A stretch of DNA of 17,162 bases, from the IMG/VR virus record IMGVR_UViG_2563366831_000005, one strand, 5' to 3'. Position 1 is the first letter of the stretch, and every line of letters begins with the position of its first letter. Below the pieces are notes generated by a model. The model ran no database searches, was not told the origin of the DNA, and worked only from the letters and a program-made list of their open reading frames with translations. Below, one piece after another: positions 1-17,162 of the stretch. The DNA is from a virus (Duplodnaviria > Heunggongvirae > Uroviricota > Caudoviricetes). The position numbers and the translations under genes are program-made.

Positions 1-569
1 GTGCCGGACGGTCGACGGGCCCATAACGCCTGCTCCAGTGCATCCAGCACGAATGTCGTTTCCATGGACGATGAGACCCGCCACCCCACGATGTATCCGG
101 CAAACACATCAATGATGAACGCCACATAGACGAAGCCCCGCCATGTGCTGACGTAAGTAAAATCAGCCACCCACAGCTGGTCAGGTCGTTCTGCCACGAA
201 CTGACGGTTTACGCGGTCGCCTGCGGCAACGGCTTTCCGGCTGATGGTCGTACGGACCTTTTTACCCCGGAGAACACCGGCAAGTCCCATAACCGCCATG
301 AGACGTGCCACAGTGCATCTGGCCACTCTGATACCTTCCCGTAACAACTGACGCCAGACTTTACGCACACCGTATACCTTGTGATTTTCATCGTATACGC
401 GCTGTATCTCTTTCTTCAGCCAGTCATCGCGCTGCGCACGGGCACTGCGTTTATCCGGATGATGTCGCTGTTGCTGACAGTGGTAATACGTTGACGGGGC
501 AATATGCAGTTCGCTGCATAGCGGTCCGACCCCGTACTGCTCACGCAGCTTATCCAGCAGTGGCATCAT
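1..569 (-). CDS. IS3-family transposase OrfB (DDE integrase domain), 3' end beyond window
   Basis: Minus-strand translation from ATGATG at 569-564 reads [72 protein letters not shown]...[57 protein letters not shown] and stays open to position 1. It is absent from the ORF track only because it has no stop inside the window. Confidence 0.85.
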
Positions 570-892
570 TTTTTCCAGAGGCGGTCGAACTCCGCCTTCG
601 CAAAATAAGCGGAAGCCTGGCGAAGGATATCGTTACTGCGGCGCAGTTCACGATTTTCACGTTCCAGCTCTTTCAGACGCTGACGTTCAGCGGTGGTGAG
701 CCCTCCATCACCACCCCCGGTATCCCGCTCATGCTGGCGAACCCAGACACGCAGAGTCTCCGGCGTACAGCCAATCTTTGGAGCAATGGAACAAATTGTC
801 GCCCATTGTGAGTCATATTCGCTCTGACTTTCCAGAACCATACGGACTGCCCGTTGACGGACTTCGGGGGAAAAACGAGTATTTTTAGTCAT
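566..892 (-). CDS. IS3-family transposase OrfA (helix-turn-helix / leucine-zipper protein)
   Basis: 108 aa [60 protein letters not shown]...[34 protein letters not shown], typical OrfA. Its TGA stop overlaps the orfB ATG. Confidence 0.9.
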
Positions 893-946
893 CCTGTTTA
901 CCTCTTTCTCAGGAAGTTTAGTCTCCAGGATTCCCGGGGCGGTTCA

Positions 947-988
947 GAAATTAAAGCTAAGTTCGGACTGAAAGGAGCAAGTGTATGA
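947..988 (+). pseudogene. 3'-terminal remnant (13 codons) of the phage replication gene (P position in lambda), cut off by the IS
   Basis: The frame ending in TGA at 986-988 overlaps the ren ATG at 985-987 as ATGA, the P/ren junction architecture of lambda. The open frame (EIKAKFGLKGASV*) begins exactly at the IS terminus. Identity as P is inferred from position only. Confidence 0.4.
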
Positions 989-1275
989 AGGGCAAAGAGG
1001 CAATTATTCATTACCTGGGGACGCATAATAGCTTCTGTGCGCCGGACGTTGCCGCGCTAACAGGCGCAACAGTAACCAGCATAAATCAGGCCGCGGCTAA
1101 AATGGCACGGGCAGGTCTTCTGGTTATCGAAGGTAAGGTCTGGCGAACGGTGTATTACCGGTTTGCTACCAGGGAAGAACGGGAAGGAAAGATGAGCACG
1201 AACCTGATTTTTAAGGAGTGTCGCCAGAGTGCCGCGATGAAACGGGTATTGGCGGTATATGGAGTTAAAAGATGA
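985..1275 (+). CDS. ren: Ren (Rex-exclusion resistance protein), lambda-like
   Basis: 96 aa, MKGKEAIIHYLGTHNSFCAPDVAALTGATVTSINQAAAKMARAG...; matches lambda Ren in length and sequence as recalled. Sits directly upstream of the tR2-like terminator and ninB. Confidence 0.85.
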   Translation: MKGKEAIIHYLGTHNSFCAPDVAALTGATVTSINQAAAKMARAGLLVIEGKVWRTVYYRFATREEREGKMSTNLIFKECRQSAAMKRVLAVYGVKR

Positions 1276-1300
1276 CCATCTACATTACTGAGCTAATAAC

Positions 1301-1333
1301 AGGCCTGCTGGTAATCGCAGGCCTTTTTATTTG
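1301..1333 (+). terminator. Intrinsic terminator, tR2-like (between ren and ninB)
   Basis: AGGCCTGC (1301-1308), loop tggtaatc, GCAGGCCT (1317-1324), then TTTTTATTT. Same position as lambda tR2. Confidence 0.6.
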
Positions 1334-1348
1334 GGGGAGAGGGAAGTC

Positions 1349-1789
1349 ATGAAAAAACTAACCTTTGAAATTCGATCTCCAGCACATCAGCAAAACGCTA
1401 TTCACGCAGTACAGCAAATCCTTCCAGACCCAACCAAACCAATCGTAGTAACCATTCAGGAACGCAACCGCAGCTTAGACCAAAACAGGAAGCTATGGGC
1501 CTGCTTAGGTGACGTCTCTCGTCAGGTTGAATGGCATGGTCGCTGGCTGGATGCAGAAAGCTGGAAGTGTGTGTTTACCGCAGCATTAAAGCAGCAGGAT
1601 GTTGTTCCTAACCTTGCCGGGAATGGCTTTGTGGTAATAGGCCAGTCAACCAGCAGGATGCGTGTAGGCGAATTTGCGGAGCTATTAGAGCTTATACAGG
1701 CATTCGGTACAGAGCGTGGCGTTAAGTGGTCAGACGAAGCGAGACTGGCTCTGGAGTGGAAAGCGAGATGGGGAGATCGGGCTGCATGA
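1349..1789 (+). CDS. ninB: NinB (Orf-family recombination protein)
   Basis: 146 aa from ATG 1349 (MKKLTFEIRSPAHQQNAIHAVQQILPDPTKPIVVTIQERNRSLDQNRKLWACLGDVSRQVEWHGRWLD...), preceded by a GGGAGAGGGAAG ribosome-binding site. The track's start at 1331 is a TTG extension. Confidence 0.9.
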   Translation: MKKLTFEIRSPAHQQNAIHAVQQILPDPTKPIVVTIQERNRSLDQNRKLWACLGDVSRQVEWHGRWLDAESWKCVFTAALKQQDVVPNLAGNGFVVIGQSTSRMRVGEFAELLELIQAFGTERGVKWSDEARLALEWKARWGDRAA

Positions 1790-2313
1790 CTATCAAATCA
1801 AATACGCCAGCACACGACAAGGACTGCTGGCAAACGCCGCTTTGGCTTTTTGATGCACTGGATATTGAGTTTGGATTCTGGCTGGATTCGGCAGCGAGCG
1901 ACAAAAATGCTCTGTGTGCTCACTGGCTAACTGAGGCCGACGACGCGCTCAATTCTGAGTGGGTAAGCCACGGTGCAATCTGGAATAACCCACCGTACAG
2001 CAATATCAGGCCGTGGGTGGAAAAAGCTGCTGAGCAGTGCATACAACAGCGACAGACGGTAGTTATGCTTGTGCCAGAGGATATGTCAGTCGGATGGTTC
2101 AGCAAGGCTCTGGAGAGTGTCGACGAAGTTCGCATTATCACTGATGGACGGATTAATTTTATCGAACCATCGACAGGGCTGGAGAAGAAGGGAAACAGCA
2201 AAGGCTCCATGCTGCTGATTTGGCGACCGTTCATCAGTCCTCGACGGATGTTTACTACCGTATCCAAAGCGGCATTGATGGCGATCGGGCAGGGCGTCAG
2301 GAGGGCGGCATGA
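1786..2313 (+). CDS. Phage DNA N6-adenine methyltransferase (Dam-type, orphan)
   Basis: ATG 1786 overlaps the ninB stop (ATGA). The product [31 protein letters not shown]...[16 protein letters not shown]... carries the NPPY catalytic motif of N6-adenine methyltransferases. No restriction endonuclease partner is nearby. Confidence 0.8.
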
Positions 2314-2486
2314 GGCGACAGCGACGAAGTTTCACCGACATCATCTGCGAAAACTGCAAATACCTTCCAACGAAACGCTCCAGAAATAAACGCAAGCCAA
2401 TCCCAAAAGAATCTGACGTAAAAACCTTCAATTACACAGCTCACCTGTGGGATATCCGGTGGCTAAGATATCGTGCGAGGAAATGA
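2310..2486 (+). CDS. ninE: NinE
   Basis: 58 aa [58 protein letters not shown]; its ATG overlaps the methyltransferase stop. Matches lambda NinE as recalled. Confidence 0.8.
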
Positions 2487-2830
2487 CAATGGATTATTCA
2501 CAGTTAAGTGATTTTGAAATTAACAGAATGGTAGGAGACATAATTTTTAAAGGCCTTTGGGCAAGTAAACCGGAAACATCAGGGAATAACACCAACAAAT
2601 GGTATTACGGAAATGCTGATACAACTTTTGAGCCATTAAATCATTTGCCTGACTACTGCAATGATCCGAGCGCTTCATGGCCGATTATTGAGAAATACAG
2701 GATTTCTATCTTAGACCAGTTAACTGAATGGTGTGTGGATGCAAAAGGCGTAAGCCCAATATTTGATACCAGACCTCTCCGCGCCGCCATGATTGTCTTT
2801 CTCCTGATGCAGGAGGCCAATAATGCTTAG
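2483..2830 (+). CDS. NinX-like nin-region protein of unknown function (P22 NinX family position and size)
   Basis: 115 aa from ATG 2483, overlapping the ninE stop (ATGA): [89 protein letters not shown].... Visibly more AT-rich than the flanking genes. Family name is from memory and tentative. Confidence 0.55.
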
Positions 2831-3017
2831 CCCATCTCAATCCCTTCAATACCTGAAAGGAAGCATAGAGCGGGCTTCAATGTGCACAGAGTGGATTCTA
2901 TCTAGGTTTAGCGCATACAGAAGATTGCCGGTAAAGGGCATGCCAAGCAAGTCGATGCTGCATATGCAAAAGAATGCGCGCTGGAAGGTATGGCGAGAAC
3001 ACAGTTTATCTGGCTGA
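2823..3017 (+). pseudogene. Chimeric ORF: NinF-like N-terminus running out of frame into a ybcO-like remnant
   Basis: ATG 2823 lies 6 nt after AGGAGG (2811-2816). The first ~18 codons, [18 protein letters not shown], resemble the lambda NinF N-terminus. The rest (…ILSRFSAYRRLPVKGMPSKSMLHMQKNARWKVWREHSLSG) has no recognisable family and overlaps the ybcO-like frame out of phase. Confidence 0.35.
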
Positions 3018-3040
3018 AAGAGGGGGTTATTAAGGCGTGA
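2951..3040 (+). pseudogene. 3' remnant of a ybcO-like (DUF1364-type) nin gene, no start codon
   Basis: The frame ending TGA 3038-3040 overlaps the rusA GTG and reads ...[29 protein letters not shown], matching the C-terminus of DLP12 YbcO as recalled. Upstream the same frame hits TAG at 2909-2911 and the similarity is lost. Confidence 0.4.
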
Positions 3041-3399
3041 ATACCTACAATATCACATTACCCTGGCCGCCGAGCAATAATCGCTATTACCGCCATAATC
3101 GCGGGCGCACGCACATCAGCGCAGAGGGGCAGGCATACCGCGAAAACGTCGCCCGAATCATTAAAAACGCAATGCTGGATATCGGCCTGGCTATGCCTGT
3201 GAAAATCCGCATTGAGTGTCACATGCCGGATCGCCGTCGCCGTGACCTGGATAATCTACAAAAGGCCGCTTTTGACGCACTCACCAAAGCAGGTTTCTGG
3301 CTGGATGATGCTCAGGTCGTTGATTACCGCGTTGTGAAGATGCCGGTTGTCAAAGGTGGAAAGCTGGAACTGACCATCACTGAACAGGGAGATGAATGA
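3037..3399 (+). CDS. rusA: RusA Holliday-junction resolvase
   Basis: 120 aa, [103 protein letters not shown]...; GTG start. Essentially the E. coli prophage RusA sequence. Confidence 0.9.
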
Positions 3400-3536
3400 T
3401 GTTTGAGTTTTATATGGCAGAACTTCTTCGCCACCGCTGGATGCGCCTGCGCTTATATCGTTTCCCCGGTTCTGTTTTGACCGATTACCGAATACTGAAG
3501 AATTACGCCAAAACACTGACAGGAGCAGGAGTATGA
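3396..3536 (+). CDS. ylcG: YlcG-like small protein (46 aa)
   Basis: ATGATG at 3396 overlaps the rusA stop. The product [46 protein letters not shown] matches DLP12 YlcG as recalled. Below the ORF track's length cutoff. Confidence 0.55.
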
Positions 3537-3621
3537 AGTCAGAGATAACAATCAACTAATACTGTTTTGTTGATTTTTGCTTGTAATTGGCGTTCTGGTC
3601 TGAGTTTTGTGGAGTAAGTTG

Positions 3622-4005
3622 ATGCGTGATATTCAGATGGTTCTTGAGCGTTGGGGAGCGTGGGCGGCTAATAATCATGAAGATGTGACCTGGTCGTCCA
3701 TTGCCGCCGGTTTTAAGGGATTAATTCCTTCAAAAGTAAAATCTCGCCCACAATGTTGTGACGATGACGCGATGATCATTTGCGGGTGCATGGCCCGTCT
3801 GAAAAAGAACAACAGCGATTTGCATGATTTATTAGTAGATTATTATGTAGTCGGTATGACATTCATGTCACTGGCAGGTAAGCATTGCTGCTCTGATGGT
3901 TATATCGGGAAAAGGTTACAGAAGGCTGAGGGCATAATTGAAGGGATGTTAATGGCATTAGATATCCGGTTAGAGATGGATATCGTTGTTAATAACTCTA
4001 ATTAA
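3622..4005 (+). CDS. Q: Late-gene antiterminator Q (DLP12 QuuD / phage-21-like type)
   Basis: 127 aa from ATG 3622 ([60 protein letters not shown]...), GGAG ribosome-binding site at 3611-3614. Cysteine cluster consistent with a zinc-binding Q. Sits immediately upstream of the late region. Confidence 0.8.
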
Positions 4006-4145
4006 TATGCCAATTATTTACTAAAAGTTATTAAAAATGGGGCGTTGAGACGCCCCCAAAAATAAAGGGTAATATATAACAGAAGGTTTATATAGTTAGA
4101 AGCAAGGTTGTGCTTCTAAAGGAAGTGGCTTGAGGGAGCCACTTA
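4006..4145 (+). promoter_or_regulatory. Candidate late promoter / Q-utilisation region (PR'-qut position)
   Basis: Position immediately downstream of Q, as in lambdoid phages. AT-rich with TTGAGA and TAATAT/TATATA hexamers, but I could not assign a convincing -35/-10 pair with canonical spacing. Confidence 0.25.
4039..4056 (-). terminator. Intrinsic terminator on the minus strand (distal terminator for the porin transcript)
   Basis: GGGGCGT (4039-4045), loop tgag, ACGCCCC (4050-4056). On the minus strand it is followed by ATTTTTAATAACTTTT; on the plus strand the tail is A-rich, so it is minus-specific. Confidence 0.4.
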
Positions 4146-4185
4146 TATGTTGGGGAGGCAACGCCTCCCGCAACATATCTTTTTC
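4146..4185 (+). terminator. Strong intrinsic terminator on the plus strand (tR'-like, downstream of Q)
   Basis: 15-bp interrupted stem: ATATGTTG-GGGAGGC, loop AAC, GCCTCCC-(g)-CAACATAT (4146-4179), followed by CTTTTT (4180-4185). Abuts the porin stop codon at 4195-4197. Confidence 0.55.
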
Positions 4186-4194
4186 GTAATCAGA

Positions 4195-5292
4195 TTAGAA
4201 CTGGTAAACCAGACCTACAGCAACGATGTCATCAGTGCTTACACCGAGTGCTTTAGTGAAGTCATTTTTGTCAAGCAGGTTGATTTTGTAATCAACGAAA
4301 GTAGACATATTTTTGTTGAAGTAATAGGTTGCACCTACATCAACATATTTGACTAAGTCCTGATCGCCCCATACTCCAAGATCCTTACCTTTAGATTGCA
4401 GGTAAGCAACGGACGGACGCAGACCGAAATCGAACTGATATTGTGCAACAGCTTCGAAGTTTTGGGCTTTATTAGCAACGAAGTGATCAGCAAATACAGT
4501 CATATTCTGGGTTTCAGAATAGGTAGTGGCCAGGTAAATGTTGTTAGCGTCATATTTCAGACCTGCGGCCCAAACTTCTGCATTTTTACCGGAAGCAAAT
4601 ACTTCAGGAAGAACTTTCCCTGCATTAACTTGAGTGTCGGTACGATCAGATTTCGCATAAGTTGCACCGATACCGAATCCTTCGTATTCATAGGTAGCAG
4701 AGAAACCGAAGCCATCACCGTTACCTTCAGTGTAGTTATCGAAATCGCTACGATCGTTTTTGCCTTGGTACTGAGCAGCAAAGTTCAGACCATCAACCAG
4801 ACCAAAGAAGTCGTTGTTACGATAGGTTGCAACACCAGTGGTGCGACCAGTCATGAACACATCTGTTTGGGTCCAGGTATCGCCACCGAATTCTGGCAGA
4901 ACGTCAGTCCACGCACCGATGTCGTATGCTACACCGTAGTTACGGCCGTAATCGATTGAGCCGTAGTCACCGAATTTCAGGCCTGCAAATGCAAGACGGG
5001 TTTTGTCTTTGGAGGAACCTTGAGATTCAGCGCGGTTGCCTTTGAATTCATATTCCCACTGACCGAAACCAGTCAGTTGATCGTTGATTTGGGTTTCACC
5101 TTTGAAGCCAAGACGGGCATAAGTAGTATCACCATCATCTGCATCATTAGAGGAGAAGTAGTGCTTGGCATTAACTTTCCCGTACAGATCCAGCTTGTTA
5201 CTGTCTTTATTATAAATTTCAGCTGCCTGAGCAGACATCGCCATCAGTACTGATGCAGCTACAGCAGAAATTGCCACTGTTAATTTTTTCAT
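4195..5292 (-). CDS. nmpC: Phage-encoded OmpC-family outer-membrane porin (NmpC/Lc type), intact
   Basis: 365 aa with a signal peptide ([23 protein letters not shown]|AEIYNK) and typical porin sequence through the C-terminal ...VGLVYQF. Uninterrupted by any IS. Confidence 0.9.
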
Positions 5293-5880
5293 CGTGAGCC
5301 CTTTTTTTTGAACTATTATTAAAAAATGATGTCACTGCGCGATAAATATTCATCTAATCAATGTGATTATTTCAAGATGTAAGTTTTAGTTTCTCATTTA
5401 ATTTGTGAAGTAGATCTCTATTTTTATCTGAACTTTTTCTATCGAAACCTATTTATGGCTCTTATTTGAACAAAAATAAACCTATTAGCTAATTTATATT
5501 AATGGTTGTTATTTATGGAGGTTCTATAATTCAGCAGTTTAATTTAAATCAACTAAAAATAACGTCTGAAATTATTTATTGGTTATTTGTTGAGGTTTTC
5601 TTATGTATTTGTGGTGGTGTTTTGAACACTCGGTAGCATTCTCATAAATATCATTCAGTGGTTTACGTACGTAAAAAATTGGTTATGCTGTTAAGAGTGG
5701 TTACTTCGTCACACAGCTTAAACCCGCCGTCGAGCTGGTTTTTCCATTTTTTGAGTCTCGATATTAGCTGATAACTCAATACCTGAGTTATTCACTGACT
5801 CCGAGTCTGTTACGTTTCTGCTTTTTTGCGATACGTTGTATTCCCTCAATTTACACCCGCTTTGTCTGCGAGGTGGGGTT

Positions 5881-6096
5881 ATGAAATCCATGGATAAGTT
5901 AACAACGGGTGTCGCCTATGGCACCTCAGCAGGTAGTGCCGGTTACTGGTTTTTACAGCTGCTCGATAAAGTCACGCCCTCACAGTGGGCAGCAATAGGT
6001 GTGCTGGGTAGCCTGGTATTTGGCCTGCTGACGTACCTGACAAACCTTTATTTCAAGATTAAAGAAGATAAGCGCAAGGCTGCGAGAGGTGAATAA
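5881..6096 (+). CDS. S: Class II holin, phage-21 S-type pinholin with dual-start motif
   Basis: 71 aa [71 protein letters not shown], with two transmembrane segments and Met1/Met4 dual starts. GGTGGGG ribosome-binding site upstream. The track's 5836 start is an unsupported extension. Confidence 0.85.
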
Positions 6097-6590
6097 TGCC
6101 TCCATCATTACGAAAAGCCGTTGCTGCTATTGGTGGCGGAGCAATTGCTATAGCATCAGTGTTAATCACTGGCCCAAGTGGTAACGATGGTCTGGAAGGT
6201 GTCAGCTACATACCATACAAAGATATTGTTGGTGTATGGACTGTATGTCACGGGCATACAGGAAAAGACATCATGCTCGGTAAAACGTATACCAAAGCAG
6301 AATGCAAAGCACTCTTGAATAAAGACCTTGCCACTGTCGCCAGACAAATTAACCCGTACATCGAAGTCGATATACCGGAAACAACGCGCGGCGCTCTTTA
6401 CTCATTCGTTTACAACGTGGGTGCTGGCAATTTCAGAACATCGACGCTTCTTCGCAAAATAAACCAGGGCGATATCAAAGGCGCATGTGATCAGCTACGT
6501 CGCTGGACATATGCTGGCGGTAAGCAATGGAAAGGTCTCATGACTCGTCGTGAGATTGAGCGTGAAATCTGTTTGTGGGGTCAGCAATGA
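6096..6590 (+). CDS. R: SAR endolysin (phage-21 R-type lysozyme with N-terminal signal-anchor-release domain)
   Basis: 164 aa. N-terminal Gly/Ala-rich weakly hydrophobic segment ([19 protein letters not shown]) followed by a T4-lysozyme-like domain. ATG overlaps the holin stop (TAATG). Confidence 0.9.
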
Positions 6591-7048
6591 ACAGAGTAAC
6601 CGCGATTATCTCCGCTCTGGTTATCTGCATCATCGTCTGCCTGTCATGGGCTGTTAATCATTACCGTGATAACGCCATTACCTACAAAGCCCAGCGCGAC
6701 AAAAATGCCAGAGAACTGAAGCTGGCGAACGCGGCAATTACTGACATGCAGATGCGTCAGCGTGATGTTGCTGCGCTCGATGCAAAATACACGAAGGAGT
6801 TAGCTGATGCGAAAGCTGAAAATGATGCTCTGCGTGATGATGTTGCCGCTGGTCGTCGTCGGTTGCACATCAAAGCAGTCTGTCAGTCAGTGCGTGAAGC
6901 CACCACCGCCTCCGGCGTGGATAATGCAGCCTCCCCCCGACTGGCAGACACCGCTGAACGGGATTATTTCACCCTCAGAGAGAGGCTGATCACTATGCAA
7001 AAACAACTGGAAGGAACCCAGAAGTATATTAATGAGCAGTGCAGATAG
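6587..7048 (+). CDS. Rz: Rz inner-membrane spanin
   Basis: 153 aa from ATG 6587, overlapping the endolysin stop (ATGA). N-terminal transmembrane segment then a coiled-coil-like periplasmic region; matches lambda Rz. Confidence 0.85.
6807..6989 (+). CDS. Rz1: Rz1 outer-membrane lipoprotein spanin, nested in the +1 frame of Rz
   Basis: 60 aa [60 protein letters not shown]: lipobox VVGC and a proline-rich mature peptide, wholly embedded in Rz. Confidence 0.8.
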
Positions 7049-7079
7049 AGCTGCCCATATCGATGGGCAACTCATGCAA

Positions 7080-7373
7080 TTATTGTGAGCAATACACACG
7101 CGCTTCCAGCGGAGTATAAATGCCTAAAGTAATAAAACCGAGCAATCCATTTACGAATGTTTGCTGGGTTTCTGTTTTAACAACATTTTCTGCGCCGCCA
7201 CAAATTTTGGCTGCATCAACAGTTTTCTCCTGTCCAATTCCCGAAACGAAGAAATGATGGGTGATGGTTTCCTTTGGTGTTACTGCTGTCGGTTTGTTTC
7301 CAACAGTAAACGTCTGTTGAGCACATCCTGTAATAAGCATTGCCAGAGCGGCAGAAAACAACATTTTTTTCAT
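7080..7373 (-). CDS. bor: Bor outer-membrane lipoprotein (Iss-family serum-resistance lysogenic-conversion protein)
   Basis: 97 aa from the internal Met of track ORF 7080-7421: MKKMLFSAALAMLITGCAQQTFTVGNKPTAVTPKETITHHFFVSGIGQEKTV..., lipobox LITGC, AGGA ribosome-binding site on the minus strand. Matches lambda Bor. Confidence 0.85.
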   Translation of the reverse strand: MKKMLFSAALAMLITGCAQQTFTVGNKPTAVTPKETITHHFFVSGIGQEKTVDAAKICGGAENVVKTETQQTFVNGLLGFITLGIYTPLEARVYCSQ

Positions 7374-7735
7374 CTTATTATCCTGCATTGTTAAAAACGG
7401 CAGAATCCTATGTGACAACAATTAAACGATAGTTAAATGGATTGATGAAAATTAAAACTATATAGGTGTACGCTCAGACTATTGGAGGAAGTTGGGGGCA
7501 CTCAGAATCCTGTGGAATGAAATAAACCGCTCTTTCTGTCCATTACCCTTTTAGCTGCGCTGTATCGTCGCCGTATTCCCGCATTAACCATGACCGTAGC
7601 CCGACGGGGAATTCCTTCTGCGTGAGTGTGCGGGAATAATCAAAAACGATGCACACCGGGTTTTACTGTGCTGACAGACGCAGGGTTACCCTCATAGTCG
7701 CTTTTCCGGTGCGATGGTGGAAGAAACCGGGATGT

Positions 7736-7930
7736 TTATTCATCATCACTTTGGATTGATGTATATGCTCTCTTTTCTGACGTTAGTCTCCGACGGCAGG
7801 CTTCAATGACCCAGGCTGAGAAATTCCCAGACCCTTTTTGCTCAAGAGCGATGTTAATTTGTTCAATCATTTGGTTAGGAAAGCGGATGTTGCGGGTTGT
7901 TGTTCTGCGGGTTCTGTTCTTAGTTGACAT
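7736..7930 (-). CDS. YlcI-like small protein (DUF3950-type), function unknown
   Basis: 64 aa MSTKNRTRRTTTRNIRFPNQMIEQINIALEQKGSGNFSAWVIEACRRRLTSEKRAYTSIQSDDE. Same position (just upstream of cos and the Nu1 homolog) as ylcI in DLP12, as recalled. Confidence 0.55.
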   Translation of the reverse strand: MSTKNRTRRTTTRNIRFPNQMIEQINIALEQKGSGNFSAWVIEACRRRLTSEKRAYTSIQSDDE

Positions 7931-8129
7931 GAGGTTGCCCCGTATTCAGTGTCGCTGATTTGTATTGTCTGAAGTTGTTTTTACGTTAAGTTGATGCAGA
8001 TCAATTAATACGATACCTGCGTCATAATTGATTATTTGACGTGGTTTGATGGCGTAGATGCACGTTGTGATATGTAGATGATAATTATTATCATTTTTCG
8101 GGTCCTTTCCGGCGATCCGACAGGTTACG

Positions 8130-8141
8130 GGGCGGCGACCT
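8130..8141. other. cos: cosN cohesive-end site (12-nt lambda-type overhang GGGCGGCGACCT), flanked by cosQ (left) and cosB (right)
   Basis: ...ATCCGACAGGTTACG|GGGCGGCGACCT|CGCGGGTTTTCGCTATTTATGAAAATTTTCCGG... reproduces the junction of lambda's right and left ends as recalled. The Nu1 gene follows about 180 bp downstream. Confidence 0.8.
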
Positions 8142-8318
8142 CGCGGGTTTTCGCTATTTATGAAAATTTTCCGGTTTAAGGCATTTCCGTTCTTCTTCGT
8201 CGTAACTTAATGTTTTTATTTAAAATACCCCCTGAAAAGAAAGGAAACGACAGGTGCTGAAAACGAGCTTTTGGGCCTCTGTCGTTTCCTTTCTCTGTTT
8301 TTGGCCGTGGAATGAACA

Positions 8319-8838
8319 ATGGAAGTCAACAAAAAGCAGCTGGCTGACATTTTCGGTGCGAGTATCCGTACCATTCAGAACTGGCAGGAACAGGGAATGC
8401 CCGTTCTGCGAGGCGGTGGCAAGGGTAATGAGGTGCTTTATGACTCTGCCGCCGTTATAAGATGGTATGCCGAAAGGGATGCTGAAATTGAGAACGAAAA
8501 GCTGTGCCGGGAAGTTGAAGAACTGCGGCAGGCCAGCGAGACAGATCTCCAGCCAGGGACTATTGAGTACGAACGCCATCGACTTACGCGTGCGCAGGCC
8601 GACGCACAGGAGCTGAAAAATGCCAGAGACTCCGCTGAAGTGGTGGAAACCGCATTCTGTACTTTCGTGCTGTCGCGGATCGCAGGTGAAATTGCCAGTA
8701 TTCTCGACGGGATCCCCCTGTCGGTGCAGCGGCGTTTTCCGGAACTGGAAAACCGACATGTTGATTTCCTGAAACGGGATATCATCAAAGCCATGAACAA
8801 AGCAGCCGCGCTGGATGAACTGATACCGGGGTTGCTGA

Positions 8839-8864
<26 letters not shown>
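8319..8864 (+). CDS. nu1: Terminase small subunit Nu1
   Basis: 181 aa MEVNKKQLADIFGASIRTIQNWQEQGMPVLRGGGKGNEVLYDSAAVIRWYAER...; N-terminal winged helix-turn-helix. Matches lambda Nu1. Confidence 0.9.
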
Positions 8865-12545
<3,681 letters not shown>

Positions 12546-12565
<20 letters not shown>

Positions 12566-13865
12566 TCTCCCGCATATTGCCAGCATGGCCTTTAATGAGC
12601 CGCTGATGCTTGAACCCGCCTATGCGCGGGTTTTCTTTTGTGCGCTTGCAGGCCAGCTTGGGATCAGTCGCCTGACGGATGCAGTATCCGGCGACAGCCT
12701 GACTGCCGGAGAGGCACCCGCGGCGCTGGCGTTATCCGGTGATGATGACGGACCACGACAGGCCCGCAGTTATCAGGTCATGAACGGCATCGCCGTGCTG
12801 CCGGTGTCCGGCACGCTGGTCAGCCGGACGCGAGCGCTGCAGCCGTATTCGGGGATGACCGGTTACAACGGCATTATCGCCCGTCTGCAACAGGCTGCCA
12901 GCGACCCGATGGTGGACGGCATTCTGCTCGATATGGATACGCCAGGCGGGATGGTGGCAGGGGCATTTGACTGCGCTGACATCATCGCCCGTGTGCGTGA
13001 CATAAAGCCGGTATGGGCGCTGGCCAACGACATGAACTGCAGTGCAGGTCAGTTGCTTGCCAGCGCCGCCTCCCGACGTCTGGTCACGCAGACCGCCCGG
13101 ACAGGCTCCATCGGCGTCATGATGGCTCACAGTAATTACGGTGCTGCGCTGGAGAAACAGGGCGTGGAAATCACGCTGATTTACAGCGGCAGCCATAAGG
13201 TGGATGGCAACCCCTACAGCCATCTACCGGGTGATGTCCGGGAGACACTGCAGTCCCGGATGGATGCAACCCGCCGGATGTTTGCGCAGAAGGTGTCGGC
13301 ATATACCGGCCTGTCCGTGCAGGCTGTGCTGGATACCGAGGCTGCAGTGTACAGCGGTCAGGAGGCCATTGATGCCGGACTGGCTGATGAACTTGTCAAC
13401 AGCACCGATGCGATCACTGTTATGCGTGATGCACTGGATGCACGTAAATCCCGTCTCTCAGGAGGGCGAATGACCAAAGAGACTCAATCAACAACTGTTT
13501 CAGCCACTGCTTCGCAGGCTGACGTTACTGACGTGGTGCAAGCGACGGAGGGCGAAAACGCCAGCGCGGCGCAGCCGGACGTGAACGCGCAGATCACCGC
13601 TGCGGTTGCGGCAGAAAACAGCCGCATTATGGGGATCCTCAACTGTGAGGAAGCTCACGGACGCGAAGAACAGGCACGTGTGCTGGCCGAACCCCCCGGT
13701 ATGACCGTGGAAACGGCCCGCCGCATTCTGGCAGCTGCACCACAGAGTGCACAGGCGCGCAGTGACACTGCGCTGGATCGTCTGATGCAGGGGGCACCGG
13801 CACCACTGGCTGCAGGTAACCCGGCATCTGATGCCGTTAACGATTTGCTGAACACACCAGTGTAA
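12546..13865 (+). CDS. C: Head maturation protease / minor capsid protein C (S49/ClpP-like)
   Basis: GTG 12546 (VTAELRNLPHIASMAFNEPLMLEPAYARVFFCALAGQLGI...) in the frame of track ORF 12411-13865; 1320 bp as in lambda C. The track's 12411 start would overlap B by 155 nt and is rejected. Confidence 0.8.
13260..13865 (+). CDS. nu3: Scaffolding protein Nu3, in-frame internal start within C
   Basis: In-frame ATG 13260 (MDATRRMFAQKVSAYTGLSVQAVLDTEAAVYSGQEAIDAGLADELV...) sharing the C stop codon; nested C/Nu3 arrangement of lambda. Confidence 0.65.
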   Translation: MDATRRMFAQKVSAYTGLSVQAVLDTEAAVYSGQEAIDAGLADELVNSTDAITVMRDALDARKSRLSGGRMTKETQSTTVSATASQADVTDVVQATEGENASAAQPDVNAQITAAVAAENSRIMGILNCEEAHGREEQARVLAEPPGMTVETARRILAAAPQSAQARSDTALDRLMQGAPAPLAAGNPASDAVNDLLNTPV

Positions 13866-13874
13866 GGGATGTTT

Positions 13875-14207
13875 ATGACGAGCAAAGAAACCTTTACCCA
13901 TTACCAGCCGCTGGGCAACAGTGACCCGGCACATACGGCAACCGCGCCCGGCGGATTGAGTGCGAAAGCGCCTGCAATGACCCCGCTGATGCTGGACACC
14001 TCCACCCGTAAGCTGGTTGCGTGGGATGGCACCACCGACGGTACTGCCGTTGGCATTCTGGCGGTTGATGCTGACCAGACCAGCACCACGCTGACGTTCT
14101 ACAAGTCCGGCACGTTCCGTTATGAGGATGTGCTCTGGCCGGAGGCTGCCAGCGACGAGACGAAAAAACGGACCGCGTTTGCCGGAACGGCAATCAGCAT
14201 CGTTTAA
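13875..14207 (+). CDS. D: Head decoration protein D
   Basis: 110 aa from ATG 13875, [110 protein letters not shown]. The track's 13869 start adds two residues. Confidence 0.9.
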
Positions 14208-14225
14208 CCTTACCCTTCATCACTA

Positions 14226-14249
14226 AAGGCCGCCTGTGCGGCTTTTTTT
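14226..14249 (+). terminator. Hairpin plus T-tract between D and E (terminator-like structure)
   Basis: AAGGCCGC, loop ctgt, GCGGCTTT (14226-14245) followed by a T run; a second T run sits at 14256-14262, just before the E ATG. Confidence 0.4.
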
Positions 14250-14262
14250 ACGGGATTTTTTT

Positions 14263-15288
14263 ATGTCGATGTACACAACCGCCCAGCTGCTGGCGGCAAA
14301 TGAGCAGAAATTTAAGTTTGATCCGCTGTTTCTGCGTCTCTTTTTCCGTGAGAGCTATCCCTTCACCACGGAGAAAGTCTATCTCTCACAAATTCCGGGA
14401 CTGGTAAACATGGCGCTGTACGTTTCGCCGATTGTTTCCGGTGAGGTTATCCGTTCCCGTGGCGGCTCCACCTCTGAATTTACGCCGGGATATGTCAAAC
14501 CCAAGCATGAGGTGAATCCGCAGATGACCCTGCGTCGCCTGCCGGATGAAGATCCGCAGAATCTGGCGGACCCGGCTTACCGCCGCCGTCGCATCATCCT
14601 GCAGAACATGCGAGACGAAGAGCTGGCCATTGCTCAGGTCGAAGAGATGCAGGCCGTTTCTGCTGTGCTTAAGGGCAAATACACCATGACCGGTGAAGCC
14701 TTCGATCCGGTTGAGGTGGATATGGGCCGCAGTGCGGCGAACAACATCACACAGTCCGGTGGTACGGAGTGGAGCAAGCGTGACAAGTCCACGTATGACC
14801 CGACCGACGATATCGAAGCCTATGCGCTGAACGCCAGCGGCGTGGTGAATATCATCGTGTTTGATCCGAAAGGCTGGGCGCTGTTCCGTTCCTTCAAAGC
14901 CGTCAAGGAGAAGCTGGATACCCGTCGCGGCTCTCATTCCGAGCTGGAGACAGCGGTAAAAGACCTGGGCGAAGCGGTGTCCTATAAGGGGATGTATGGC
15001 GATACGGCGATCGTCGTGTATTCCGGACAGTACGTGGAAAACGACGTCAAAAAGAACTTCCTGCCGGACAACACGATGGTGCTGGGGAACACTCAGGCAC
15101 GCGGTCTGCGCACCTATGGCTGCATTCAGGATGCGGACGCACAGCGCGAAGGTATTAACGCCTCTGCCCGCTACCCGAAAAACTGGGTGACCACCGGCGA
15201 TCCGGCGCGTGAGTTCACCATGATTCAGTCAGCACCGCTGATGCTGCTGGCTGATCCTGATGCGTTCGTGTCCGTACAACTGGCGTAA
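14263..15288 (+). CDS. E: Major capsid protein E
   Basis: 341 aa from ATG 14263, MSMYTTAQLLAANEQKFKFDPLFLRLFFRESYPFTTEKVYLSQIPGLVNMALYVSPIVSGEVIRSRGGSTSEFTPGYVKPKHEV...; lambda gpE. The track's 14236 start is an extension. Confidence 0.92.
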   Translation: MSMYTTAQLLAANEQKFKFDPLFLRLFFRESYPFTTEKVYLSQIPGLVNMALYVSPIVSGEVIRSRGGSTSEFTPGYVKPKHEVNPQMTLRRLPDEDPQNLADPAYRRRRIILQNMRDEELAIAQVEEMQAVSAVLKGKYTMTGEAFDPVEVDMGRSAANNITQSGGTEWSKRDKSTYDPTDDIEAYALNASGVVNIIVFDPKGWALFRSFKAVKEKLDTRRGSHSELETAVKDLGEAVSYKGMYGDTAIVVYSGQYVENDVKKNFLPDNTMVLGNTQARGLRTYGCIQDADAQREGINASARYPKNWVTTGDPAREFTMIQSAPLMLLADPDAFVSVQLA

Positions 15289-15329
15289 TCATGGCCCTTC
15301 GGGGCCATTTTCTCTCTGTGGAGGAGTCC

Positions 15330-15725
15330 ATGACGAAAGATGAACTGATTGCCCGTCTTCAGGTGCTGGGTGAGCAACTGAACCGTGATGTCAGCCTGAC
15401 GGGGACGAAAGAAGAACTGGTGCTCCGTGTGGCAGAGCTGGAAGAGGAGCTTGATGACACGGATGACGCTGCCGGTCAGGACACATCTGTCAGCCCGGAA
15501 AATGCGCTGACCGGACATGAAAATGAGGTGGTATCAGCGCAGCCGGATACCGTGATTGATACGGCTGCTCTGGTCACGGTCGTGGCACTGGTGACGCTGC
15601 ATACTGATGCACTTCACGCCACGCGGGATGAGCCTGTGGCATTTGTGCTGCCGGGAACGGCGTTTCGTGTCTCTGCCGGTGTGGCAGCCGAAATGACAGA
15701 ACATGGCCTGGCCAGAATGCAATAA
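15330..15725 (+). CDS. FI: DNA-packaging / head assembly protein FI
   Basis: 131 aa from ATG 15330, MTKDELIARLQVLGEQLNRDVSLTGTKEELVLRVAELEEELDDTDDAAGQDTS...; GGAGGAG ribosome-binding site at 15318-15324. Confidence 0.85.
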   Translation: MTKDELIARLQVLGEQLNRDVSLTGTKEELVLRVAELEEELDDTDDAAGQDTSVSPENALTGHENEVVSAQPDTVIDTAALVTVVALVTLHTDALHATRDEPVAFVLPGTAFRVSAGVAAEMTEHGLARMQ

Positions 15726-15736
15726 CGGGAGGCGCT

Positions 15737-16090
15737 GTGGCTGATTCCGATAACCTGTTCGATGCTGCCATTGCCCGCGCCGATGAAACGATACGCGGGT
15801 ACATGGGAACGTCAGCCACCATGACATCCGGTGAGCTGTCCGGTGCTGTGATACGTGGTGTTTTTGATGACCCTGAAAATATCAGCTATGCCGGACAGGG
15901 CGTGCGCGTTGAAGGCTCCAGCCCGTCCCTGTTTGTCCGGACTGATGATGTGCGGCAGCTGCGGCGTGGAGACACACTGACCATCGGCGAGGAAAACTTC
16001 TGGGTGGACCGGATTTCGCCGGATGATGGCGGAAGCTGTCATCTCTGGCTTGGGCGTGGCGTGCCGCCTGCCGTTAACCGTCGCCGCTGA
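15737..16090 (+). CDS. FII: Head-tail connector (head completion) protein FII
   Basis: 117 aa, GTG start, MADSDNLFDAAIARADETIRGYMGTSATMTSGELSGAVIRGVFDDPENISYAGQGVRVEGSSPSLFVRTDDVRQLRRGDTLTIGEENFWVDRISPDDGG... Confidence 0.88.
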   Translation: MADSDNLFDAAIARADETIRGYMGTSATMTSGELSGAVIRGVFDDPENISYAGQGVRVEGSSPSLFVRTDDVRQLRRGDTLTIGEENFWVDRISPDDGGSCHLWLGRGVPPAVNRRR

Positions 16091-16101
16091 AAGGGGGATG
16101 T

Positions 16102-16680
16102 ATGGCCATAAAAGGTCTTGAGCAGGCCGTTGAAAACCTCAGCCGTATCAGCAAAACGGCGGTGCCTGGTGCCGCCGCAATGGCCATTAACCGCGTTGCG
16201 TCATCCGCGATATCGCAGTCGGCGTCACAGGTTGCCCGTGAGACAAAGGTACGCCGGAAACTGGTAAAGGAAAGGGCCAGGCTGAAAAGGGCCACGGTCA
16301 AAAATCCGCAGGCCAGAATCAGGGTTAACCGGGGGGATTTGCCCGTAATCAAGCTGGGTAACGCGCGGGTTGTCCTTTCCCGCCGCAGACGTCGTAAAAA
16401 GGGGCAGCGTTCATCCCTGAAAGGTGGCGGCAGCGTGCTTGTGGTGGGAAACCGTCGTATTCCCGGCGCGTTTATTCAGCAACTGAAAAATGGCCGCTGG
16501 CATGTCATGCAGCGTGTGGCCGGGAAAAACCGTTACCCCATTGATGTGGTGAAAATCCCGATGGCGGTGCCGCTGACCACGGCGTTTAAACAGAATATTG
16601 AACGGATACGGCGTGAACGTCTTCCGAAAGAGCTGGGCTATGCGCTGCAGCATCAACTGAGAATGGTAATAAAGCGATGA
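16102..16680 (+). CDS. Z: Tail assembly/completion protein Z
   Basis: 192 aa MAIKGLEQAVENLSRISKTAVPGAAAMAINRVASSAISQSASQVARETKVRRKLVKERARLKRATVKNPQARIRVNRGDLPVIKLGNARV...; lambda gpZ. Confidence 0.88.
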   Translation: MAIKGLEQAVENLSRISKTAVPGAAAMAINRVASSAISQSASQVARETKVRRKLVKERARLKRATVKNPQARIRVNRGDLPVIKLGNARVVLSRRRRRKKGQRSSLKGGGSVLVVGNRRIPGAFIQQLKNGRWHVMQRVAGKNRYPIDVVKIPMAVPLTTAFKQNIERIRRERLPKELGYALQHQLRMVIKR

Positions 16681-17072
16681 AACATACTGAACTCCGTGCA
16701 GCCGTACTGGATGCACTGGAGAAGCATGACACCGGGGCGACGTTTTTTGATGGTCGCCCCGCTGTTTTTGATGAGGCGGATTTTCCGGCAGTTGCCGTTT
16801 ATCTCACCGGCGCTGAATACACGGGCGAAGAGCTGGACAGCGATACATGGCAGGCGGAGCTGCATATTGAAGTTTTCCTGCCTGCTCAGGTGCCGGATTC
16901 AGAGCTGGATGCGTGGATGGAGTCCCGGATTTATCCGGTGATGAGTGATATCCCGGCACTGTCAGATTTGATCACCAGTATGGTGGCCAGCGGCTATGAC
17001 TACCGGCGCGACGATGATGCGGGCCTGTGGAGTTCAGCCGATCTGACTTATGTCATTACCTATGAAATGTGA
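16677..17072 (+). CDS. U: Tail terminator protein U
   Basis: 131 aa [93 protein letters not shown]...; ATG overlaps the Z stop (ATGA). Confidence 0.9.
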
Positions 17073-17079
17073 GGACGCT

Positions 17080-17162
17080 ATGCCTGTACCAAATCCAGTA
17101 ATGCCGGTGAAAGGGGCCGGGACCACCCTGTGGGTTTATAAGGGGAACGGTGACCCTTATGC
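17080..17162 (+). CDS. V: Major tail tube protein V, 5' end only (continues beyond window)
   Basis: ATG 17080 preceded by GAGGA; reads [27 protein letters not shown]..., the lambda gpV N-terminus. Confidence 0.8.

Follow-up and report, generated by a model that had tools for sequence, protein, structure and literature searches.

Organization of the ninB-dam-ninE locus

The window, which denotes the whole stretch of 17,162 nucleotides that was analyzed, contains a dam gene located between ninB and ninE in the nin region of a lambda-like prophage. The features of this locus are as follows.

1..944, minus strand: IS3-family element (IS629/IS1203-like), cut by the window edge, with HTH_Tnp_1, HTH_21 and rve domains
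985..1275, plus strand: ren-like 96-aa ORF, the last gene ahead of the terminator and nin genes, from E. coli annotation
1301..1334, plus strand: tR2-like intrinsic terminator between the ren-like ORF and ninB, with an 8-bp stem containing 6 GC pairs and then TTTTTATTT
1349..1789, plus strand: ninB, Orf-family recombination mediator (PF05772, E = 2e-54; RefSeq annotation of identical DNA)
1770..1775, plus strand: Shine-Dalgarno-like GGGGAG (GGAG at 1772-1775), read from the sequence
1786..2313, plus strand: dam, encoding a 175-aa phage N6-adenine DNA methyltransferase, based on family models and identity to M.EcoVT2Dam
1987..1998, plus strand: codons AAC CCA CCG TAC of catalytic motif IV (N68-P69-P70-Y71), read from the sequence
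2310..2486, plus strand: ninE (PF05322, E = 3e-42; RefSeq annotation of identical DNA)

The dam reading frame consists of 175 codons and extends from an ATG at 1786 to a TGA at 2311-2313. At the upstream junction, an ATGA at 1786-1789 combines the dam start codon (1786-1788) with the stop codon of ninB (TGA, 1787-1789), and at the downstream junction a second ATGA at 2310-2313 combines the dam stop codon with the ninE start codon (2310-2312). An initial annotation had described a 175-aa methyltransferase with an NPPY motif at 1786-2313, coupled by ATGA to both ninB and ninE and situated in the nin module. Each element of this description was borne out, as the NPPY motif was found at residues 68 to 71, both overlaps were read in the sequence and the flanking genes were named NinB and NinE by Pfam. 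The Shine-Dalgarno-like GGGGAG is positioned 10 nt 5' of the dam ATG, within the 3' end of ninB, while an AGGAGG is present ∼7 nt ahead of the ninE ATG at 2310. The GGAG at 1772-1775 and this AGGAGG are plausible ribosome-binding sites, a function predicted from position and sequence. A GATC site (1775-1778) is located between the dam Shine-Dalgarno sequence and the start codon.

A Pfam scan detected genes for NinX, RusA and the Q antiterminator after ninE, with RusA being located 700 bp downstream of dam. A 64-aa ORF without a Pfam match (2823-3017) overlaps the remnant of a DUF1364 pseudogene (∼2951-3040, RefSeq annotation of identical DNA) directly before rusA, and this overlap at 2823-3040 points to the scar of a deletion within the nin region. 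On the minus strand, an antisense ORF of 174 aa (1920-2444) spans most of dam and ninE. This ORF was examined as a potential gene, had no credible Pfam match, was absent from the RefSeq annotation and is probably a chance ORF.

Several E. coli strains carry lambda-like prophages with 100% DNA identity to positions 945 to 17162 of the window. One of these prophages, in CP55_Sichuan, is complete and adjoins tRNA-Arg and intD. Its gene order is int, exo-bet-gam, cI-cro-cII-O-P, a ren-like ORF and ninB-dam-ninE-ninX, followed by rusA, ylcG, quuD, a porin gene on the opposite strand and the lysis, terminase, head and tail genes. The porin gene in the window (4195-5292, minus strand; PF00267, E = 1e-156) encodes a 365-aa protein of the OmpC/NmpC type. 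It is moron-like cargo comparable to that of DLP12, flanked by the Q antiterminator gene and the lysis genes and situated in DNA of low GC content (40.5% over 4100-5900). Also on the minus strand, at ∼7080-7370, is a gene for a Bor/Iss lipoprotein.

The ren-like ORF is annotated in E. coli genomes either as 'protein ren' or as hypothetical, and no Pfam match was obtained for its 96-aa product. As a terminator at 1301-1324, with a T run after it, is located upstream and no promoter-like site was found between this tR2-like terminator and dam, transcription of dam should require N-antiterminated transcription from pR, and its expression should consequently be tied to lytic growth. Evidence on expression was available for phage Phi24B, whose 528-nt dam gene has a product 100% identical to the VT2-Sakai protein described below (PMC3342100). 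In lysogen cultures, the Phi24B Dam protein could be detected by immunological means, and the qPCR profile of the gene changed significantly upon induction and was grouped with those of lytic-cycle genes (PMC3342100). This link of expression to the lytic cycle agrees with the position of dam in the operon downstream of the tR2-like terminator.

The IS3-family element, which has orfA at 566-892 and, cut by the window edge, the beginning of orfB, is inserted ∼43 nt ahead of the gene P stop codon, and homology to the intact prophage begins at 945. In the window copy, the insertion cuts pR off from the nin/dam operon. As the element is situated between pR and dam, expression of this copy of dam may be reduced, and the prophage itself is probably defective in replication. 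The exact junction of the element (944/945) was absent from 5426 complete E. coli genomes, in which the best match had 96.8% identity and was in two pieces. The source of the window may be a strain or species outside this set, such as Shigella.

Family membership and relationship to other Dam enzymes

Profile HMM searches, as had been proposed in the initial annotation, placed the dam protein in a single family over its full length and above the curated thresholds of both PF05869 and TIGR01712. The match to PF05869 ("Dam") had an E value of 6e-65 and a score of 218.4 bits against a threshold of 28.1, with residues 4 to 169 being aligned to positions 1 to 167 of the 169 profile positions. The NCBIfam equivalog TIGR01712 ("phage N-6-adenine-methyltransferase") was matched across all positions (1-165 of 165) with 265.9 bits against a cutoff of 97.05. 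A match was also obtained to phrog_111 ('DNA methyltransferase'; E = 9e-88), and the best PADLOC match was 'orphan methyltransferase'.

The amino-methyltransferase motif IV, (N/D)PP(Y/F/W), is present in the dam protein as N68-P69-P70-Y71. In an alignment of 49 family members with 31 to 67% identity to the window protein, N68 and P70 were invariant and P69 and Y71 were at least 90% conserved. Conserved residues on the N-terminal side of this motif (D13-x-W15-x-T17-P18 and L33-D34-x-x-A37) and on the C-terminal side (R122-x-x-F125, N137 and S141) were all present, with T17, D34, R122 and F125 being invariant in the 49-member alignment. Because of the family membership and the conserved NPPY motif, it follows that the enzyme would perform an S-adenosylmethionine-dependent transfer of a methyl group to the N6 position of a flipped-out adenine.

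The PF05869 family is large, with 8784 clusters at 50% identity matching at an E value of ≤1e-3. Some members (P0139, P0140, P0147, P0242 and P0195) are fused to a C5-cytosine DNA methylase or a PAPS-reductase domain; the C5-cytosine methylase domain is N-terminal in these fusions, which have lengths of 500 to 690 aa. The fusions with a C5-cytosine methylase are, as judged from their domains, double DNA-modification enzymes, and this DNA-modification context was counted in favor of the methyltransferase reading. Another sequence (P0121) is a chimera of an O protein and Dam with 99% identity and looks like a fusion produced by deletion or assembly.

Two other enzymes of the same Pfam and TIGRFAM family are the T1 Dam (M.EcoT1Dam, 237 aa), with 33% identity to the window protein (E = 2e-26), and the Dam of Haemophilus phage HP1 (orf13, 173 aa), with 36% identity. 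All three proteins have the motifs D-x-W-x-T-P, L-D-x-A-A, NPPYS, G-R-x-x-F and N-x-K-G-S. T1 Dam is extended by 44 residues at its N-terminus and carries an insertion of 14 residues. The T1 and HP1 enzymes are orphans, as is the window enzyme, but their genes are found in genomic contexts that are unlike ninB-dam-ninE. Both are called Dam and were cloned or purified in work that is cited in PMC7556043 and PMC7139368.

A different relationship was observed for the Dam enzymes of E. coli and phage T4, which are alpha-class enzymes (Pfam MethyltransfD12). These enzymes catalyze the same reaction, have a GATC target according to the literature and are also orphans. The window protein is, however, ∼100 residues shorter and is without a separate DNA-recognition domain. 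Homology to these enzymes was not detected: PF05869 was the sole Pfam match at an E value of ≤0.01, and sequence and profile searches of the PDB produced no match to EcoDam even though EcoDam structures are present in this database. The description of the window enzyme as 'Dam-type' in the initial annotation was hence apt for the activity and the family name but not for a sequence relationship to the E. coli or T4 Dam. The GATC specificity shared with EcoDam and T4 Dam was reportedly regarded as convergent by Bujnicki and colleagues in 2001.

A solved relative of the window protein was not found in the PDB with either the protein query or a 49-sequence profile; matches to SdiA and to Med31, the latter through a 'WCNPPYS' string, were dismissed as chance matches, and no PF05869 member is known to have a solved structure. 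An AlphaFold2 model built from 33 homologs was moderately confident (pLDDT 73.8, pTM 0.76), with residues 37 to 62 being poorly predicted. A Foldseek comparison of this model with the PDB detected only weak matches (E ≥ 2e-3, TM ≤ 0.42), and these were N6-adenine methyltransferases, namely TrmM, CamA, METTL4, METTL3/14 and EcoDam, the last of these (4rtl_A) at an E value of 0.11 and a TM score of 0.30. The predicted structure thus fits the fold class and is of no use for assigning specificity. Confidence was lowest between the two strands that bear L-D-x-A-A and NPPY, at the place expected for strands 2 and 3 of a classical Rossmann fold, and the low confidence of the region spanning residues 37 to 62 in the model suggests a reduced cofactor-binding core.

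Identity to M.EcoVT2Dam, target specificity and distribution

The dam protein was 100% identical over 175 aa to a protein of Stx2 phage VT2-Sakai (AP000363, AP000422) in a tblastn search. The VT2-Sakai counterpart (dam, H0105, BAA94133.1) is located between a NinB homolog and ninE and is annotated as 'dam, DNA N-6-adenine-methyltransferase; similar to 933W L0094, HP1 Orf13 and T1 M.T1'. No second methyltransferase is annotated anywhere in the VT2-Sakai record. As this dam is the only annotated methyltransferase of VT2-Sakai, the gene is therefore that of M.EcoVT2Dam. The protein, its length, the position between ninB and ninE and the overlaps are all the same in VT2-Sakai and in the window, and the same gene is present in 933W (L0094), Phi24B, HK97-like phages and many Stx phages. 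The difference is in the carrier and not in the protein: the gene in the window is carried by a lambda-like prophage with an IS3-family insertion in P, whose intact relative is located at the argU/intD (DLP12) site.

The initial annotation held that the target could not be read from the sequence. A target can, however, be inferred from the complete identity to M.EcoVT2Dam, for which GATC has been reported. According to PMC6602927, this enzyme 'is known to target 5'-GATC-3'', and PMC7139368 and PMC7556043 place VT-2 among phages with a demonstrated Dam-like activity that converts GATC to Gm6ATC. All three papers refer this statement to the cloning study of Radlinska & Bujnicki (2001). The GATC specificity given here is hence drawn, via protein identity, from secondary citations of that 2001 study, and the literature-based target of the window enzyme would be the N6 of adenine in GATC. 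The dam protein is, by its amino acid sequence, an already known enzyme that is identical to the one cloned in 2001, and the test of protection against MboI and DpnII proposed in the initial annotation is essentially the kind of experiment that was published in that year.

The frequency of GATC was compared with a Markov model for positions 945 to 17162. The prophage contained 43 GATC sites where 72.9 were expected (ratio 0.59); the corresponding values for CTAG were 1 and 8.0. Such depletion of GATC is not what a strong requirement for its methylation would lead one to expect. The idea of a special GATC-dependent element close to dam was also unsupported, as these statistics indicated depletion and not enrichment.

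The dam gene was detected at ≥95% nucleotide identity in 1566 of the 5426 complete E. coli genomes (∼29%), with up to five copies in each, and in 244 phage records, which were mostly of lambda-like and Stx-converting phages. The ninB-dam-ninE DNA is 100% identical in many E. coli chromosomes, for which PGAP annotates exactly these three genes and routinely names dam as 'phage N-6-adenine-methyltransferase'. In E. coli prophages and in phages such as VT2-Sakai, HK544 and Sf101, dam has a conserved position and a conserved start/stop overlap with ninB. These results indicated that dam is a common, widely distributed and routinely annotated phage gene.

A restriction endonuclease was not found among the ORFs of the window, which agreed with the initial annotation, or in the RefSeq annotation of the intact prophage that is 100% identical to positions 945 to 17162. 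The arrangement also differs from that of a Type II restriction-modification system, with the neighbors of dam being NinB, NinE, NinX and RusA, and PADLOC produced no defense matches for the ren-like ORF, NinB, NinE or NinX. As the identical complete prophage has no endonuclease, dam is therefore an orphan.

Proposed role and alternative explanations

The biological role that we infer draws on two sources. This analysis established the anatomy of the gene, its family, the identity of its product to M.EcoVT2Dam, its orphan status and its place in the operon, and the GATC specificity and lytic-cycle-linked expression were taken from the literature. There is a strong likelihood that dam encodes a small, single-domain orphan GATC methyltransferase of the T1/HP1/VT2 Dam family, which is expressed as a delayed-early gene in lytic growth and most likely adds to the available Dam capacity. 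With N antitermination in operation, transcription from pR would pass the tR2-like terminator, making dam a delayed-early gene, and translation would occur within the tightly packed ninB-dam-ninE unit. The gene would be silent in a repressed lysogen and the enzyme would be produced during lytic growth, when replication of phage DNA may outpace a limiting host Dam and the phage enzyme would supply the extra capacity. Packaged genomes could then be fully methylated at GATC and protected in the next host from methylation-sensitive systems that cut this sequence. The phage Dam may also set the methylation state that is read by the host MutH and SeqA proteins. As E. coli hosts have their own Dam, the benefit of a phage dam gene is not obvious, and workers in the field describe the function of phage Dam enzymes as not yet well understood (PMC7556043). 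A literature search for functional work on a nin-region methyltransferase returned nothing specific.

Several other explanations were weighed against an orphan GATC methyltransferase of lytic growth. A non-specific or relaxed adenine methyltransferase, as exemplified by M.EcoGII, Hia5 and PhiOS31_p25, would provide broad protection against restriction, and silent prophage-borne enzymes of this type are common in E. coli (PMC5778455, PMC7556043). The window enzyme has no recognizable target-recognition domain, and a GATC protection assay by itself leaves room for a wider activity. M.EcoGII and M.EcoGI are likewise orphan m6A methyltransferases; they are encoded by prophages in pathogenic E. coli and stay silent during lysogeny, but they differ from the window enzyme in being beta-class proteins of 349 aa that are non-specific and unrelated in sequence (PMC5778455). 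Such enzymes have ∼350 aa, in which the recognition domain lies centrally between DPPY on the N-terminal side and FxGxG on the C-terminal side (PMC5778455); the 175-aa window protein has a different architecture, and its similarity to the M.EcoGII-like methyltransferase L24 of phiP27 did not extend beyond the PPY tripeptide (E = 0.15). Furthermore, the VT-2 enzyme is presented as Dam-like and GATC specific in papers that cover both kinds of enzyme (PMC6602927, PMC7139368, PMC7556043). An activity of the M.EcoGII/Hia5 type was hence rejected on architecture and absence of homology, and this explanation is highly improbable. Somewhat less improbable, though still very unlikely, is that the prophage is decaying and carries dam as an inert passenger, intact through recency or chance and no longer expressed or selected in this copy. 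Such decay could be signaled by the IS3-family element in gene P, which cuts the nin genes off from pR and has a junction seen in none of the 5426 genomes, and by the DUF1364 pseudogene remnant elsewhere in the nin region. The dam ORF is, however, full length, and a functional Stx phage has an enzyme 100% identical to its product. As positions 945 to 17162 are 100% identical to prophages with a complete gene set, the IS insertion is recent and is uninformative on the function of the gene in the phage lineage. This explanation bears on the state of the window copy and not on the identity of the gene.

A further explanation concerns the host proteins that read GATC methylation. MutH requires hemimethylated GATC sites, and full methylation of GATC could blind MutH repair (or SeqA) and so favor Red/NinB/RusA recombination as well as replication. 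This would explain the fixed place of dam between ninB and ninE, which is conserved with its ninB overlap in the settings given above, and would be in keeping with the nearness of rusA. Lambdoid nin regions are, however, mosaics of unrelated small genes, and the T1 and HP1 homologs have other genomic contexts; a role in recombination is unsupported and extremely unlikely. Rather unlikely is a proposal that bears on mechanism and not on the identity of the gene, namely that the enzyme, which has no separate target-recognition domain and no closely similar solved structure, reads GATC in a manner unlike that of EcoDam and T4 Dam, perhaps by dimerizing or by using the poorly predicted loop at residues 37 to 62, and that the conserved coupling to ninB could reflect shielding of recombining or replicating phage DNA from MutH or SeqA and not an anti-restriction function.

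The discovery value of dam is small, since the gene is known, its product being identical to the enzyme cloned in 2001, and ∼29% of complete E. coli genomes carry it. The comparison of the methylomes of a lysogen and a deletion mutant proposed in the initial annotation would be uninformative because lysogens keep dam repressed and the host Dam has an identical motif. For the O111 methylomes, PMC6602927 reports that GATC methylation by Dam and by its homologs could not be separated. Prophage GATC methyltransferases are hence indistinguishable from the host Dam in methylome data, and the residual value of the finding is practical.
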